Below are positions 1 through 7,146 of a DNA stretch of 64,000 nucleotides, in pieces. Location: the NCBI GenBank assembly GCA_963845755.1, contig CAWJTV010000019.1, positions 32,001-96,000 on the forward strand, in the 5' to 3' direction. Source of the stretch: an uncultured Planctomycetota bacterium (lineage in GTDB: Bacteria; Planctomycetota; Planctomycetia; Isosphaerales; Isosphaeraceae). A model generated the notes under the pieces. It was not told the origin of the DNA. It was given only the letters and a program-made list of their open reading frames with translations, and searched no databases. The position numbers and the translations under genes were made by a program. Each line of letters starts with the position of its first letter. Positions within the stretch are counted from its first letter, which is position 1.

Positions 1-1474
1 CCATCGCGGAGGTAAGCCTGGGGGTCGATCCCCAGATTCTTGCAGGTCGTGCACAAGCTCATCAACACGGCCGCCGTCTGGCCTCCCTGGTCGCTCCCCG
101 CGAATAACCAGTTCTTCCGTCCCAGCGCCACGGGCTTGAACGCGCGCGCGCACGCACCGTTGTCCAGTTCGAGGAACCCGGCCTCCAACGGACGCTTCAG
201 GGCCTCCCAATGGTTCAAGGCATACTGGATCGCTTCGCCGATCGGACTCTTGGGCAGAACCTTGGGCTGCTCGGCTTCCAGCCAGGCGTGAAACTTGTCG
301 AAGATCGAACGCGATCGCTCGTTTCGCAGTTCGTGCCGGAACGCGACGAAGGCCTCGTAGTCCGCGGTCTCGCGCTTCTTGGCGTCGCGTTCGACGTCGT
401 AGAGCAGGCTGATCCATGCCAGCGCCGATGGGACCGTTGCGGGTTGACGGTCCGCGCCTCGTAGAACTTCCGTCGCGCGTGCATCATGCAGCCGACCTCG
501 ATAATCTCGCCCGACTTGTACAGGCCGTCGTAGGCCGAATAGGCGTCGGCCTGGAGATAACCCTGGAAGTCCTTGAAGATCTCCCGGGGCCCGGTGGCGC
601 TGCGGTCCGGCGTGTAGCGATAGACCACGTAAGGATGGCCGCGGTCGCCGACGGAGACCCAGAGCCGGCCGGTCTTGATCCCCTTGCCGTCGTGGTCCTG
701 CACCGGCACCGTCGTGTCGTCGTTCTGGACGACCCTGGAGCTGAGGATCTTCTTCAGCATCAGATCGACGATCGGCTTGAGCAGATCGGCGATCGTGGCC
801 ATCCAGTCGCACATCGTTGACCGCGACAACTCGACGCCCGAGCGATCGAGGATTCCCTCGAGGCGATAGAGCGGCAAGTGATCGGCATATTTGCTGACGG
901 CGACGTAAGCCAGCAGCCCCGGGCCTGGCAGGCCCTTGTCGATCGGCTCGGGGAGCACGTCGGCGATCACGACGTTGGCCTGGCAGTCCTGGCAAGCGTA
1001 CTTGGGGCGGATGGGTTCGAGGATGACCAGGCGGGCGGGGATGAATTCGAGTTGCTCGCGGACTTCCCGGCCGATGCAGGTGCGCTCGGCGCCGCAGTCG
1101 GGGCAAGTGCGTTGTTCGGGCGGGACGTCGTGCAAGACCGGCACTCGGGGCAGGCTCGCCGGCAACGGCTTGCGTCCGTGGCCCTTCTTCTGGGCCGCAC
1201 TCGGAGCGGGCGTCGGGGCCGGGGCCGGCTCCGGGGTCGGGGCGGGTGTCGGCGCCGCCTCGGCCTGCTCCAGGATCTCCCGGGCGAAGAGCAAGAGCTG
1301 GGCCGGGTCGATCCGCTCCCCTTTGGGACCGTAGCGCTGGCGGAGGAGCTGCTCGAGCTGGTGCTGGAGCTTCTCGTTGAGATGGACCTGCTGGGCGAGC
1401 GACTTGAGCAGCTCACGGATGAGCTGATGGGCCGCCTCCAGGTCGTCCGGGAGTGGGTCCGCGAGGGTGATCAT
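1..1474 (-). CDS. tnpC: IS66 family transposase TnpC (frameshift near 420-430; runs off left edge)
   Basis: ORF 215..1474 has the coiled-coil N-terminus, HGRKPLP, CPDCG zinc finger, KYADHLPLYR, QADAY and CMMHARRKF motifs. The alternative frame continues EAIQYALNHW...ELDNG...ALGRKNWLFAGS to position 1. Confidence 0.95.
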
Positions 1475-1513
1475 ACCCTATACTACGTTGACGGGTGCTC
1501 GATTGTTGGCGCA

Positions 1514-1700
1514 TTATGCTCCTGTCGGTAGATTATTCTCCGAATTTCGAAGGGGAGTGGCGGGCCGCGAGTAGCGGACGCGCCGTCGGGCCTTGTCCAG
1601 ATCGATGCCGGCCAGGAGGGCGGCGAGTTCGGCGGTGGTCATCTCGACGCGATCGGCCGCCGCGTCCGGGATGCGGAAGGTGCCGCGTTCGAGCCTCTTG
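1514..1700 (-). pseudogene. tnpB: IS66 tnpB, C-terminal part
   Basis: KRLERGTFRIP...MTTAELAALLAGIDL is the typical TnpB C-terminal half. Confidence 0.9.
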
Positions 1701-1790
1701 ATGCTGGCATCACAGGACCCTCGTTCTTGTGGCGTTACACAAATCCTGAGACGTTGGGCTACTGCCGCCACAAATCGGCGGCCTCTCTTG

Positions 1791-3970
1791 CTACCGGTCG
1801 GGACGGTCCTTGGGAACGACCAACTCAGGGTGCCGGGCGGCGATCCAGGAGTTCTTTCGTCTGGCCAGTTGTCGCAGGCGACGAACCTCGTCCTTGTCGG
1901 CCCACACGATCAGATGCTTTCCCGAAGGCGTACGCCGCGAATGGACCCAACCCTGCTTGATCCAATAATGGACCTTCTGGGCGATGACGCCGAGTTTCCC
2001 GGCCAAGTCGGGGATCCACCACTCGTCCTGGCCGACGAGGTCGTCGCGGAACAGTTCTCCGACCAGCCCAAGTTCACGGACCAACGCCCCGATCGTTCCC
2101 GCCGTGAACACGCCGCGACGGCGCGGCGGGACGAAGCCCTCGGCATTGAGCCGCGCGGCGATCTGCGACAGGTGAAGTCCTTCTCGATGGAGTTGCTTGA
2201 TTCGTTCCGTGAGGCGTCGAAAATCCTTCAATTGCTCATACCTGCCGACTGGCCTCGCGACCTGCTGTTGGGTTGTCATGCCGCCGAGCCAAACGATCGT
2301 TACCTCGTTGAGCTCAGTCGCCTTGTCGGCCACGACAATGACCCGCTCCACCGCGCAGCGCACGATCTGCTTGCGATCCATCGCCGACGTGCCTGGTGCG
2401 TGCCAGAGCGCGGCGACGCTCTCGGAGAGCGATCGAATCCGTTGGCGATCGGCGTCGTTCAGCGTCGCCGGCAGTCTCGTCAGGAACCGATGGTAATCCT
2501 CCTCCGTTTGACGCTGCTTCTTCAGCGCGTCCTCCCACCGCGCCTCGAGTGTCCGCGCCACGAGTCGGTTCTCGGGCTCCACGGCCTGATACTGCCGCTC
2601 GGCCCTCTCGACCTCCTGGCGTGCGCGTTCCAGAGTCTGACGCCAATGGTCGTGGAGCGCTTGCGCTCTCGCTCGGCGTTCTCGATCGCGCGTAGGCTCA
2701 GGTCCAGCGCAGCGGGCTCCAACGCGCGGAGCACTTCCTTCGCGACCAGGTCGTCCAGCGTCTTTGCCGAGATGCACCCGCACGGCTCGTCCAGGGCCAG
2801 CCGCCAATACTCGCCGCAGTGATAGCCGGGCTTCTTGTCGGCCTTGTATCGCGTCGTCATGTGGCGGCCGCATTTCCCACAGACGACCAGGCCGGGCAGC
2901 AAGGCCTCGCCGCGTTTGGGCACGCCCCGCGTGTCGTGGAGCGATCGATTCTGTTTGAGGCGTTCCTGATTCGCGAGATAGCGATCCCAGCTAATGTACG
3001 CTGGGAGCCGATCCGGCAGGAACACGGCCAACTCCTCGGGCGGCACGAACCACTTGCCGCCTTCGGCTCGACCCGTCGTGGGATTCTTCGTCCCCGCGCG
3101 ATGTAGGCCATAAGCGTATGCCCCCGCATAGATGGGGTGTCGCAAGATCGACAGGACTCGACTGGGAGAGGCTGGCTTCCACTCCAGCTCCCCAATGCGC
3201 CCACCGCGATGACGGCGAAATCCCAGTTGCAGGTTGTTCACGACCAGGTAACGGAAGACCGCGTAGGCGGAACCGAGTTCCTCGAACTTCTCGAACACCA
3301 ACTGAATCATTCCACGCGCCTGCTCGTCAGGCTCTTGAATGATCTCGCCCGTGGCCGTCTTGAGGTATCCCAGCGGAACGGCCAGGAACAGCTCGCCGCG
3401 CTCCGCTTTGTTCCGACTGCCTCGAAGCAAACGATTGTACATAGTAATCAATTCGTATTCGCTCATTGCGCTTTTCATGCCAAGGAGGAGACGATCGTTA
3501 CTGTCCAAGGCATCGTAGACGCCATCTTGATCGCATAGCAGGGTGCGAAAGATGCCGCAGACGTCGATAAGACGATGCCATTCGGTATTCGACCGCGACA
3601 CCCTGCTAAGCTCCAACCCCAGCACGATCCCCACGTGGTTCAAGCTCACTTCCGTCATCAACCGCTGGAAGCCCGTGCGATGGTCGGTCAACTTGCCGCC
3701 GTGGCCCTGATCCTCGTCGATGATCACCACCCGCTCTGCGGGCCAACCGAGCCGTTGCGCGAACTGCGCCAGAGCATACTGCCGTTCGCGAGACTCGCGG
3801 TTCTCGAGGACTTGCTGCGGCGTTGACTGCCGCACGTACACGATCGCGAGTCGATCGAGATGCCGATCGCCAATCTTCGAGCTCGACCTCTGGCCGAAGG
3901 TGGAGGTCGATGGAGTCTCGTCGATTGATCTGTCCGTGCGATTGACGGCCCGTGCATCACGAGATTTCAT
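1791..3970 (-). CDS. Large serine recombinase (resolvase, recombinase, Zn-ribbon, coiled coil, C-terminal HTH-like); frameshift near 2665
   Basis: YVRQST catalytic motif, IDEDQG, ELSRVSRS, VPLGY, HPIYAG and CGKCG. The second frame 1791..2873 supplies the C-terminus. Confidence 0.92.
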
Positions 3971-4146
3971 CGCGCACCTCCTGAGCGGTGCGAGGCGCGC
4001 CGAGTTGTCGAGTCACGATGTCGCTGAGGGTGAGCAGCGTTCGTTGACGCTGCTCGTCCGTCAGTCGGCTCCAGAGTTGGTCCAGCACCGACGGCCGAAC
4101 GACCGACGTGCGCGGGGGGAGCAACGAGTCCGGCGTCTCGCGACAT
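3957..4146 (-). CDS. Small accessory ORF of the recombinase element (probable frameshift in a C-run)
   Basis: GGAGG RBS precedes ATG 4146. The helical tail LWSRLTDEQRQRTLLTLSDIV overlaps the recombinase start. Confidence 0.5.
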
Positions 4147-4280
4147 GGGGCACCTCCTTGGATCACGGGGTGTTGAGCTTCGATCCATTCCGCCAGCCGC
4201 ATCAGGCCGGCCAGCGCGATTATGGGGGTGTCCGACGATTCCTGTAAAGTCGAGAGGATGGGGGCAGTCTTACTCGTACT

Positions 4281-4488
4281 TCTTGGCCCAGACGGCCAGG
4301 CCATCGCGATCCCAGTACAGGATCTTGATGCGGTCGCGGCGCTTGTTGACGAAGACGAAGAGATGACCGGAGAGGGGATCTAGCGCCAGGCTGCCTGATG
4401 CCAGGGCGGCCAGGCCGTCAAAGCTCTTGCGCATGTCGGCCGGCTGTTTGGCGAGATAGACGCGGACCGCGGCGCTCAGTCCGAACAT
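4281..4488 (-). pseudogene. tnpB: IS66 tnpB, N-terminal part
   Basis: MFGLSAAVRVYLAKQPADMRKSFDGL...LFVFVNKRRDRIKILYWDRDGLAVWAK. Confidence 0.93.
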
Positions 4489-4841
4489 GGGCGTCCCTCC
4501 ACGACCGCGATGAGATGGCGGAGGGTCAGGGGGTCGAATCCGGGGGCGACGGCGATCCGACGTCCGTTGGAGAGGATGAGTTCGAGGTGGGGTCCCGAGG
4601 CGGCGCTCGGCGGGATGGGATCGGGAAGGATAGTGACCGGGAGGAAATGGCGGTCGGCACTGGCGAAAGGACGATCGTCGCTGGGAGTGCGATCGGCCGG
4701 GGCGGGCTGGTAGAGATGCTTTCGGAAGGAGTGAAGCGAGATTTGGCGAAGGCGGCAGAACTCGGCTTGAGTCAGACCGCTCCTGCGGAAATCGTTGAGG
4801 AGGGCATTCCATCGTAGATCGATGGTTCGGCTTCGAGACAC
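4476..4841 (-). CDS. tnpA: IS66 TnpA accessory protein
   Basis: SGLTQAEFC HTH-like motif, FLPV and LELILSNG motifs; overlaps the tnpB start. Confidence 0.88.
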   Translation of the reverse strand: MSRSRTIDLRWNALLNDFRRSGLTQAEFCRLRQISLHSFRKHLYQPAPADRTPSDDRPFASADRHFLPVTILPDPIPPSAASGPHLELILSNGRRIAVAPGFDPLTLRHLIAVVEGRPCSD

Positions 4842-4934
4842 GGCGTGATCTCCCTGACGGGACCACTGGCCCCGACAGCACTATCATCGCGGGGAGTCAC
4901 GCCGCTTTGTAGATGCACTTCACCGGACGGACAC

Positions 4935-5558
4935 CGAACAAGTTGAGGACGGGATGAGTCATTGGGAGAAGTTTCTTCATGCCCCCATGCCAGATGTGCT
5001 CGTTCAACTCGCCATCGTCCATGCAGAGTTCGAATCACTTCACCCATTCTTGGATGGAAATGGTCGCATTGGCAGAATCGTCATTCCTTTGTTTCTATAT
5101 GCAAGAAACCAATTGCATGCGCCTATGTTTTACCCGAGCGAGCACCTAGAAGCCAATCGACAGGAATATTGCGACCGCTTGCTAGCCGTGTCACGGGACG
5201 ACGATTGGACTGGCTGGTGCTGTTTCTTCCTCGACGCCCTGATCCAACAAGCACGCCAAAACGCAAACAAGACCCGCAAGATCTTGGACCTCTATGAGTC
5301 GCGAAAAGACCAGATTCCCTCCGTCACGCGCTCACCCCATGCCATCAAGGCTCTGGATTTTATCTTTAAGACTCCGGTCTTCAACGCGAAGACATTTGTC
5401 AATGAGTCGCGTATACCGGCTCCCACGGCTCGCCGAATTCTCAACGTGTTGGCCGATAGAAAGTTGCTAAGAACGATCCGCCAGGCTAGCGGCGCCGTCC
5501 CGCAATCTACGCGTTCTCTGAACTGCTGAATATTACCGAGGGGAGGACGATCATTTGA
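4935..5558 (+). pseudogene. Fic-domain protein, C-terminal part (5' part separated by IS66)
   Basis: Canonical HPFLDGNGRIGR motif. The frame is open back to the IS end (EQVEDGMSHWEKFLH). A frameshift near 5490 gives the tail RRPAIYAFSELLNITEGRTII*. Confidence 0.88.
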
Positions 5559-5752: not shown

Positions 5753-7146
5753 CAGGGCTTACGCACCAGCCTGGGATATCTGAGTGTTCTGGGAAAGAGC
5801 ATCTCGCCTCGATCCTACAGTCCGGCTGGTCGGGAAACGGACGTCTTTTGTACCATCGATCGCCAGGATAACTCGATCTTTTCAGGGACGTCCACACCAT
5901 GACCGTCAGCTCGGATTCGGCCTCCGCTACTCCCGCCCAAGACCCGATCTCACTCCTCGATCATTTCGCCGACTTGCCCGATCCCCGCCGCGAACAGGGG
6001 CGAATCCACCGACTCGATGAGATCATTTTCATCGCCACCTGCGCCGTGTTCTGCGGCGCCGACAACTGGGTGCAGATCGCCGATTATGCCCACTCCAAGA
6101 GCGACTGGCTCGAGACCTTCCTCGAATTGCCCGGCGGCATCCCCTCGCACGACACCTTTCGACGGGTCTTCTGCCTGCTCGACCCGCTGGCCTTTCAGAA
6201 GGGCTTCTCCTCCTGGATGACGGCGCTGATGGAGCGAACGGGATTGACCCCCGTCGCCACCGATTCGCCCGAGCTGACGCCGATCGCCATCGACGGTAAG
6301 GCCCAACGCGGCGCGGCGCGGCGCACCGTCGGCCGCTCGGCCCTGCATGTCGTCAGCGCCTGGGCGGTCGTGAACCATTTGACCTTGGGGCAAGTGGCCA
6401 CCGACGCCAAATCCAACGAAATTACGGCCATTCCCGACTTGCTCGCGATGCTGGACCTCAACGGGGCCGTGGTGACCATCGACGCCATGGGTTGTCAGAA
6501 AGACATCGCCGCCAAGATCATCGACGGGGGTGGCCATTACGAGCTCGCGGTCAAGGAGAACCAGCCGCACCTCTACGAGGACATCGCGCGGGCGTTCGAC
6601 GAGGCATTGGATCAGGGCGAGCCCGGGGTGGACTTCACTGAATGTCAGACGGAAGAGATCCGCAGCGGTCGCCAGGAGACCCGGAGTTGCTGTGTGATCA
6701 CCGAGCCGAAGGGGATCCGCAACCTGGGCCTTTGGGCCGGGCTGACGGCGATCGTGATGGTGATCAGCCATCGGGTGATCCATGGTGAGGCCAGCAGTGA
6801 GACCCGCTACTTCATCAGCAGCGCGTCCCAGCCGGCGACAGAGCACCTGCGTTGGGTGCGGGGTCATTGGGGGATCGAGAACTCGCTGCACTGGGTTCTG
6901 GACGTCTGTTTCTCTGAGGATGATCAACGGCACTGGGCCGGGAACAGCGCGGAGAACTTGGGATGGCTCCGCAAGATGGCTTTGTGCTTGCTCAAGGCGG
7001 AGAAGAACAGCAAGGGCAAGAGTATCGCGACGCGCCGCCTGGTTGCGGGCTGGAAGAATGACTATCTCTTGGATGTACTGGCCCAAATCCCCGAGAAATC
7101 AACTGTACTGGCCGAAAACCCCGAGAAATCTGGTGCGTAAGCCCTG
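5753..7146 (+). mobile_element. ISAs1 family insertion sequence, complete
   Basis: Perfect 17-bp IRs CAGGGCTTACGCACCAG at 5753-5769 and 7130-7146. 10-bp target duplication CACGGGCGGT at 5743-5752 and 7147-7156. Confidence 0.97.
5899..7140 (+). CDS. ISAs1 family DDE transposase
   Basis: DPR..HRL, IPSHDT, IAIDGK, KSNEITA, TIDAMGCQ, HWGIENSLHWVLD motifs. Confidence 0.97.
   Translation: MTVSSDSASATPAQDPISLLDHFADLPDPRREQGRIHRLDEIIFIATCAVFCGADNWVQIADYAHSKSDWLETFLELPGGIPSHDTFRRVFCLLDPLAFQKGFSSWMTALMERTGLTPVATDSPELTPIAIDGKAQRGAARRTVGRSALHVVSAWAVVNHLTLGQVATDAKSNEITAIPDLLAMLDLNGAVVTIDAMGCQKDIAAKIIDGGGHYELAVKENQPHLYEDIARAFDEALDQGEPGVDFTECQTEEIRSGRQETRSCCVITEPKGIRNLGLWAGLTAIVMVISHRVIHGEASSETRYFISSASQPATEHLRWVRGHWGIENSLHWVLDVCFSEDDQRHWAGNSAENLGWLRKMALCLLKAEKNSKGKSIATRRLVAGWKNDYLLDVLAQIPEKSTVLAENPEKSGA

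Follow-up and report, generated by a model that had tools for sequence, protein, structure and literature searches.

The window, a 64,000-nucleotide (nt) stretch of an uncultured Planctomycetota bacterium (G000:C19:32001-96000; assembly of 14.3 Mb in 49 contigs, approximately 88% complete), begins within an IS66 element whose tnpB gene is split by an insert. This splitting is confirmed. The insert (1701-4285) encodes a large serine recombinase (SR), and upstream of the SR gene lies a single small coding region of unusual organization. Taken as a whole, the data are very probably best explained by a minimal site-specific element of Planctomycetota, which uses the attP × attB mechanism of its SR and spreads as a passenger on IS66. 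The features underlying this explanation are as follows (window coordinates):

1..4934, minus strand: composite of IS66 and insert, extending to 311 bases before the window start (G000:C19:31689-36934; 5,246 bp)
3..1474, minus strand: IS66 tnpC (Pfam DDE_Tnp_IS66, zf-IS66 and LZ_Tnp_IS66)
1514..1696, minus strand: C-terminal tnpB fragment, RLERGTF... through the stop (Pfam, translation)
1696..1700, no strand: TCTTG core copy at the recombinase-distal end (coding strand CAAGA)
1791..3970, minus strand: large SR gene; the intact form encodes 726 aa (L002:1817-3997)
4281..4285, no strand: TCTTG core copy at the recombinase-proximal end
4270..4488, minus strand: N-terminal tnpB fragment, MFGLS...AVWAK, continuing with KYE and a stop within the insert
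4476..4841, minus strand: IS66 tnpA-like open reading frame (ORF) of 121 aa, without a Pfam match and syntenic in relatives

The host is recognizable as IS66 by its tnpA-tnpB-tnpC order, its terminal repeats starting with GT (inverted repeats GTGCGTCCGGTGAA.. and GTGTCCGTCCGGTGAA.. of the composite) and its 8-bp target duplications. Its tnpB is cut between ..AVWAK and RLERGTF... The minus-strand ORF 4270-4887 covers positions 2-64 of the 101 positions of the TnpB_IS66 profile (Pfam, E 6.7e-24), and ORF 1514-1771 covers positions 60-100 (E 7.8e-8). With one TCTTG counted, the insert is 2,585 bp long. In silico removal of 1701-4285 fused ..DGLAVWAK and RLERGTFRIP.. in frame, giving 129 residues and a stop. 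Thus, two claims of the initial annotation stand: a 2.6-kb unit bounded by TCTTG lies in IS66 tnpB, with the Pfam-matched TnpB halves on either side, and its excision gives an intact, in-frame tnpB. By itself, the 5-bp TCTTG repeat is meaningless; the surrounding context makes the insert real. Across lineages, only AAG or AA of the core is common. No inverted repeat links the two ends of the insert among the 25 longest of 68 inverted-repeat pairs. There was no Rfam match at E ≤ 0.1 in window 1-5200, and a terminator scan detected no terminators. The tnpC of the window is frameshifted (a base is missing at ~426), and intact 524-aa tnpC genes are present in copies C21 and C22 of the same genome.

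By its domain content, the protein encoded by the insert is a large serine recombinase. A Resolvase domain (PF00239, E 5.5e-16) spans SR residues 42-193 and is followed by the Recombinase (PF07508, E 6.6e-12) and Zn_ribbon_recom (PF13408, E 1e-9) domains and by ~170 extra C-terminal residues with weak winged helix-turn-helix/MerR-like matches. The catalytic serine motif reads YVRQS49T, and the serine is kept in five of six aligned relatives. In one copy of genome G119 it is replaced by leucine; that G119 holds only dead recombinases was considered and rejected, since the sister copy has serine. The att sites, too, are as established for large SRs: they are short and share a small identical core, and neither terminal inverted repeats nor a target duplication accompany them. 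No DUF4368 domain (TnpX/TndX type) was found among the Pfam matches of the SR at E up to 1. The SR scored below every curated NCBIfam equivalog cut-off (XisF, 72.2 vs 375 bits; CcrA, CcrB and CcrC, 28-38 vs 700-900 bits), and its sole sequence match among solved structures was a resolvase catalytic domain.

In the window copy, the SR gene falls into two frames (2522-3970 and 1791-2873), and a G is absent after position 2656. This G is present in seven of the eight other own-genome copies aligned there; C21 lacks a base 7 nt further on. It is also present in contigs from three public sequencing runs: one possibly of the source sample, one of the same study (X2) and one of a different study (X5). 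The comparison suggests that the frameshifts of the window copy are either peculiar to that copy or assembly errors. The initial annotation had described a small ORF and a large SR. The domains are indeed present; the SR of this copy is broken by the missing G, and the 115-aa small ORF does not hold as drawn, since its ATG (4304) falls outside the insert, in tnpB, and its frame hangs on the homopolymer run at 4114-4119. We also rejected tnpB as the supplier of the small-ORF start, because this ATG is not conserved (hand reading; genome G071 has ACG).

Empty alleles were found in two other genomes. G046, the only other same-genus genome examined, contains the same IS66 at 97% identity with no insert: five of five matches to window 1300-1900 end at the junction. 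In the two aligned loci (L156 and L160), the IS66 is uninterrupted and its arms abut with a 5-bp overlap. L156 encodes a 129-aa TnpB and reads GTTCGAGCC-TCTTG-GCCCAGACG, letter for letter the attB predicted from the window alone. The best SR matches in G046 are just 46-51% identical, and none belongs to the window lineage. Genome G023 holds both states, with an empty locus (L055) 95-96% identical to a filled one (L044) and a 7-bp overlap; at least ten tnpB genes are contiguous in this genome and two are split. The core thus measures 5 bp in the window and 7 bp in G023, and the empty allele holds a single core copy. A second filled locus of G023 (L043) matches L044 at 95.7% identity over the tnpA side and the insert. 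The match ends precisely at the AAG core, past which L043 has a different IS66, its TnpC being 42% identical to that of the window, versus 60%. The empty tnpB alleles that the initial annotation proposed to look for in the source genome were not found there for this IS66 (see below) but are present in the congener and in G023.

The same codons are occupied in divergent IS66 elements. The W-x-K|R-L-(E/S) codons are filled in at least 12 other genomes or metagenome-assembled genome records; reading of translations revealed variants of the tnpB C-part, ..RLS(S/E)GRF.WWP, among the occupied hosts. Five of 29 representative loci of the family have this site filled (G071, G079, G119 and G029 are among the carriers), as have 11 of 80 loci in a phylum-wide scan of species genomes, three of which repeat the 29-locus set. 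The same-site SRs are 45-83% identical to that of the window, the N-parts of the host TnpB proteins 58-73% and the TnpC proteins 42-68%; the divergence of the SR does not parallel that of its IS66 host. If only relatives with readable flanks and at least 55% identity are counted, 13 of 15 lie in tnpB. A FastTree phylogeny of 85 recombinases places the tnpB-targeting elements in two separate clades. Together, the empty alleles, the use of the same codons in divergent IS66 hosts and the free-standing relatives support the proposal of an IS-like SR unit that targets a conserved tnpB motif.

One further locus may bear a trace of such an element. L047 (G071:C19:2972221-2972524) is a contiguous tnpB with a 7-nt AAGCAAA insertion directly after AAG, which shifts the frame of tnpB. 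AAGCAAA matches the first bases of the recombinase-element ends, and this single case looks like a scar of element loss.

We then compared the copies within the source genome. The insert is present in eight copies at 99.6-100% identity and in one truncated copy at 97% (C13b). All eight near-identical copies have shared flanks of at least 40 bp per side. C13b is inserted at the same TCTTG of an IS66 that is 95.5% identical, its insert part being 97.2% identical. All nine copies or remnants retaining the site are filled, and each IS66-arm match that reaches the site runs into the insert; apart from these, the arms match only 928 bp on contig C9, a fragment of the outer end on the tnpC side. None of the 18 PF05717 matches in the genome is an uninterrupted tnpB. 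Since the copies are filled, have common flanks and are accompanied by no empty copy, the repeated unit is a 5.25-kb composite. The composites occupy different loci, and target duplications of 8 bp flank C22 (GCGTGAGC) and C19b (TCTTGTGA, one extra G). C20a and C20b (G000:C20:715080-720330 and 738506-743758) lie in inverted orientation and show reciprocal 8-bp duplications, AACTGGTC and GAGCCGCC; therefore, the intervening 18 kb was inverted by recombination between copies.

The copies differ by few substitutions and many single-base indels; comparison with short-read contigs suggests that the indels are assembly errors. Of the four possible combinations of the variants at 818 (IS66 part) and 3824 (insert), three occur. 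Judged from these sequences, the insert probably spread in G000 as a passenger of IS66 transposition, starting from one filled founder, because of the 818/3824 combinations, the divergence of C13b in both of its parts and the exclusively empty copies of the congener. Under such passenger spread, an uninterrupted tnpB would not be needed in cis, which raises the question of whether IS66 needs TnpB. ISBst12-type members of the IS66 family are not known to carry tnpB.

The surroundings of C13b are rearranged. C13a, a composite without the outer 928 bp of its tnpC side, adjoins the older, diverged C13b (G000:C13:343105-351972), the insert of which is cut at position 2544. The 928 bp missing from C13a are located at C9:1396-2321. 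This arrangement is either a rearrangement or an assembly join.

How could such an element move? Large serine recombinases recombine attP with attB at a central dinucleotide, and the target is not duplicated. Here, the SR would recombine attP, formed by the joined ends of the insert, with an attB of ~30-40 bp that encodes the TnpB W-x-K|R-L-E motif. The crossover would fall within the shared AAG(A), presumably at AA(G), from which a single orientation, the lack of a target duplication and exact reversibility follow. Integration and excision would both be catalyzed by the SR. A filled IS66 founder would then multiply by TnpC-mediated transposition, carrying the insert as a passenger, and the fixed orientation would put the SR gene downstream of the IS66 promoter.

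Several observations weigh against this explanation. Two loci with a 72%-identical relative (L083 and L084, 99.9% identical to each other) lie outside IS66 in two unrelated flanks, which have only AA(G) in common with the usual core, and most loci of the wider family (24 of 29 and 69 of 80) lie outside tnpB. The expected specificity for IS66 and its core hence stands for the close relatives (the 13 of 15 above) and fails for L083/L084 and for the family at large. A search of G000 using the two IS66 arms turned up no empty copy of this element, so independent movement within this genome is at most a possibility. The uninterrupted 726-aa SR ORF is present as assembled only in C20a (L002), i.e., in one of eight copies, or one of nine with C13b. 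Further, no recombination product, whether empty site or circle, was observed for G000, so current activity is unproven. The circular attP junction that had been expected was also not seen: contigs of four public runs contained no empty-site or circle joints over window 1300-4700, although contigs drop rare variants and this does not imply absence. Finally, tnpB was reportedly required for transposition in work on IS679, which would speak against transposition of the composite without a helper. In a contig of a run from a different study, we found a 97.5%-identical variant of the insert with flanks of only 25 and 17 bases; it gives a hint, no more, of several flanks in that sample.

Other histories could also have produced these composites. 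The eight or nine IS66 copies may have been present first and each been invaded separately, with transient excision restoring tnpB and letting IS66 move. Every IS66 copy provides an attB, the consensus SR is intact, the congener has only empty copies, and the lack of any uninterrupted tnpB in the assembly is awkward if TnpB is needed for IS66 movement; all of this fits a saturation by integration. We nevertheless consider it unlikely. Because serine recombination is conservative, the insert could hardly multiply until every site was filled, and no empty copy of this IS66 was found in the genome. Variants in the two parts, IS66 and insert, show linkage, and the older C13b has diverged in both parts (95.5% and 97.2%). 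In G119, too, there are three composite copies and none empty of that type.

If, on the other hand, an IS66 ancestor had captured the SR module once, the module would be fixed cargo, inherited only with IS66 and without mobility of its own. The constant orientation and the exclusively composite copies in G000 and G119 agree with this; the empty alleles at 95-97% identity already contradict it. The same SR clade moreover occurs in IS66 hosts with TnpC proteins 42-60% identical to that of the window, similarity breaks exactly at the core, the close relatives L083 and L084 are outside IS66, and 100%-identical relatives are found in unrelated flanks (see below). Fixed cargo is thus hardly credible. 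An insert kept as a regulatory switch, with controlled SR excision turning on tnpB in the manner of skin or fdxN, is also very improbable. Excision would restore tnpB exactly, and the insert is co-oriented with the IS66 operon and so would be co-transcribed; against this, excision products were not observed, the host element is selfish itself, the composites seem to multiply without tnpB repair, and the XisF model scores far below its cut-off (72 vs 375 bits). A mobile element spreading as a passenger on IS66 therefore remains our preferred explanation.

The small coding region upstream of the SR gene is organized in an unusual way. We aligned both insert ends across lineages and located the following features:

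1701..1725, minus strand: far end of the insert, with an outward GAGGG (1722-1718) followed by GTG (1713-1711) and ATG (1710-1708)
3957..4113, minus strand: conserved C segment of the small region (..LDQLWSRLTDEQRQRTLLTLSDIVTRQL..), ending 14 nt within the SR gene
4114..4119, minus strand: C tract (G run on the plus strand), 6 in the window copy, where two coding frames meet
4144..4159, minus strand: conserved internal AAGGAGG and ATG, in the third frame
4160..4280, minus strand: conserved N segment of the small region (..PIIALAGLMRLAEWIEA..)

The far end is conserved across lineages: a start codon, ATG or GTG, lies at position -14 or -11 relative to the core behind a GGAGG- or GAGGG-like box, both facing outward. 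In the integrated state, this start codon enters tnpB out of frame. When the ends were joined to attP, it led in frame into the small gene's N segment in 13 of 13 fully evaluated lineages (seven by script and six by hand; L088 was readable only in part). The consensus of the N segment is ..PII.L..LL.LA.W.., and that of the C segment is ..LW..L..EQR..L..L..IV.RQL... In 50 distinct sequences, variability upstream of the C tract is highest at third positions of the N frame (1.62 vs 1.13 and 1.25 bits, p 0.003), and downstream of it at third positions of the C frame (1.54 vs 1.20 and 1.03 bits, p 3e-5). These peaks indicate that both segments look coding, in frames +1 apart. A sigma-70-like site, TTTACA-18-CATAAT (4248-4219; 10 of 12 matches), lies inside the N segment; the promoter scan found three such sites in 3.6 kb versus 0.4 expected, and by hand reading the -10 box of this one is kept family-wide as TAnnAT.

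The C tract at the frame junction is a candidate site of programmed frameshifting or slippage, as far as comparison of sequences goes. An (N)T-C7-8-GCGC motif is present upstream of the SR gene in ~90 loci. The tract is C8 in all four copies of genome G107 and in a finished record of Singulisphaera acidiphila (L145), and C7 in all six copies of G111. Its length is 6-7 among the own-genome copies and 7 in six of the eight others listed; contigs of three to four public runs also have 7 (an extra G after 4113). Some other loci are one C shorter, which masks the tract, and the shorter counts would reflect homopolymer errors of long-read assembly. The internal ATG frame leads into the C frame by a -1 shift, in C8 lineages via a C_CCC_CCC heptamer. 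The outgroup lineage L073 has no tract, and its ribosome-binding site (RBS) and ATG run straight into a DUF5372-like ORF (E 3.4e-8); of the small ORFs searched, only this one matched DUF5372, with no match at E up to 1 for those of the window and two relatives.

Because the small gene acquires an RBS and start codon of its own solely at the attP joint, and because its two halves are connected only through a frame change at C7-8, expression may be coupled to the state of the element. After excision, the joint would give the small gene its own translation start, much as the circle joint of Tn4451 serves TnpX. The small product might then assist or direct the SR. A predicted fold of the SR with a fused 108-aa small product scored 0.57 (best control, 0.01), which is weak: in the calibration, 18 of 157 solved complexes scored 0.60 or lower, as did the only two of 215 mismatched pairs that passed. 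The fold runs concurred in at least 37% of contacts, with a partner pLDDT of 44-46; the model gives a hint only of SR-small product binding. The attP-spanning start and the C7-8 tract at the frame junction are family-wide and new to us.

The wider recombinase family is abundant in Planctomycetota, to which most relatives belong, including Isosphaeraceae (e.g., Singulisphaera), Gemmataceae and Pirellulales; a few relatives come from Streptomyces, and others from small contigs with different bin assignments. Our scan detected 586 stretches encoding a relative, with matches in 68 of 121 genomes of the window's family. Judging by copy and flank comparisons, more distant lineages are plainly autonomous and occur as single-gene repeats of 2.5-2.6 kb in other targets, which are often mobile-element genes. 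Six copies compared in G111 (of at least nine matches) are 100% identical over 2,516 bp, are bounded by CTC and have four different flanks. G107 contains four copies of a 2.64-kb unit in three flanks; in two of these, different IS5-like transposase genes are cut at the same ..SIVE|NLIGWLK.. codons (L062-L064).

Other mobile genes also serve as insertion sites. Mobile-element genes were found beside 19 of 36 loci in a Pfam flank scan in which the background density of mobile genes was not controlled; the scan took in 450 of the 459 ORFs with 70 or more residues, the omitted nine all being from L053. In L067/L068 (G010), the IS66 TnpC zinc finger is split by the insert; in L073/L074 (G071), a group II intron reverse transcriptase is split between RVT_N and RVT_1; and in L033 (G098), the target is another recombinase gene of the same family. 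The remaining mobile genes in the flanks include DDE_5, DDE_Tnp_1, DDE_3, IstB, rve, a Tn5-type transposase and tyrosine integrases. That the family is specialized on mobile elements is a lead, not a result. A tentative and rather doubtful joint reading would be that these are undescribed, phylum-wide minimal serine-recombinase transposons acting as hyperparasites of mobile elements. Separate lineages would have specialized on DNA coding for conserved motifs, two in TnpB of IS66 and others in the TnpC zinc finger of IS66, in IS5-like transposases and in the reverse transcriptases of group II introns, and the small gene, complete only across the circle junction and needing C7-8 recoding, would let the element sense whether it is integrated or free.

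Two loci of the family were noted separately. At L053 (G000:C9:4500-7900), a 35%-identical SR lineage abuts IS66 tnpB at a second motif, RK|SFDGL; the locus sits in a nest of IS66 fragments, and its far end has GGAGG and ATG. L128 is a family member on the Tundrisphaera lichenicola plasmid pP12_2, a possible route between genomes.

Mobile elements driven by large SRs are already known, as are elements with other transposons as targets and genes that excision restores. In the clostridial transposons Tn4451/Tn4453 (TnpX) and Tn5397 (TndX), as here, one large SR excises a circle and inserts it, without inverted repeats or target duplication. These transposons, however, are 6-21 kb long, carry cargo, use loose GA sites and occur in Firmicutes, whereas the window element is 2.6 kb long, has no cargo and uses a long coding target inside another transposon. 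Lyras and Rood reportedly showed in 2000 that joining the ends of Tn4451 in the circle generates an expression signal for TnpX. What spans the joint of the window element is an RBS with a start codon and no experimentally demonstrated promoter. The phage and integrative and conjugative element (ICE) integrases of the PhiC31/Bxb1 type, which work with recombination directionality factors, share the Resolvase, Recombinase and zinc-ribbon domains and a short attB in conserved coding sequence. The window element differs from them by the lack of phage or conjugation genes, a multicopy selfish target, the small gene straddling attP and the ~170 extra C-terminal residues of its SR.

The IS607 family has IS-sized elements, a serine recombinase and no inverted repeats. 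IS607 TnpA is small, with an N-terminal helix-turn-helix and a C-terminal catalytic domain; the SR, in contrast, has 726 aa, an N-terminal catalytic domain (42-193) and then large-recombinase domains, and does not belong to this type. IS4321 and IS5075 (IS1111 family) insert in the inverted repeats of Tn21-type transposons and are likewise small elements with a conserved sequence of another transposon as their specific target. They use a DEDD transposase, RNA-guided or other target choice and a non-coding repeat, in contrast to the SR and coding motif here. In the skin (SpoIVCA) and fdxN (XisF) elements, too, a large SR is located inside a gene that excision restores exactly; these are single copy, developmentally timed and in a host gene, whereas the window element is multicopy and phylum-wide.

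DUF4368 is typical of multi-targeting recombinases, and many large serine recombinases target one conserved site in a gene (PMC10083194). A report on beta-clamp motifs in IS66 proteins had no bearing on the question (PMC3971601). In the literature searched, with subscription journals and ISfinder outside its coverage, we found no published description of this family or of an SR inserted in IS66 tnpB. Nor was the combination found described there of a cargo-free 2.5-2.6-kb unit, abundance in one phylum, coding motifs of mobile genes as targets, an attP-spanning gene and a C tract.

The strategy is compact: a multicopy, conserved coding motif of a transposon serves as landing site, and the element then rides to higher copy number. 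For annotation, the element explains many genes labelled as "recombinase family protein" and split tnpB pseudogenes in planctomycete genomes. The small gene is a candidate case of circle-dependent gene expression combined with a recoding site, conserved in ~90 loci. The family also provides a natural set of SRs with readable attB/attP pairs in GC-rich DNA, which may serve as integration tools.

The composite lies in a mobile-element cluster that makes up the first 7 kb of the window. On its outer side, the terminal ~255 bp of the IS66 tnpC side are present as a tandem duplicate at G000:C19:31434-31943, immediately before the window start. On the other side, the plus-strand ORF 4954-5529 begins 20 bp past the IS66 end and matches only the C-terminal part of Fic/DOC (profile positions 47-93); it is probably a fic-type gene cut short by the IS66 insertion. 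An intact 413-aa transposase with DDE_Tnp_1_assoc and DDE_Tnp_1 domains is encoded at 5899-7140 (plus strand), adjoining the composite.

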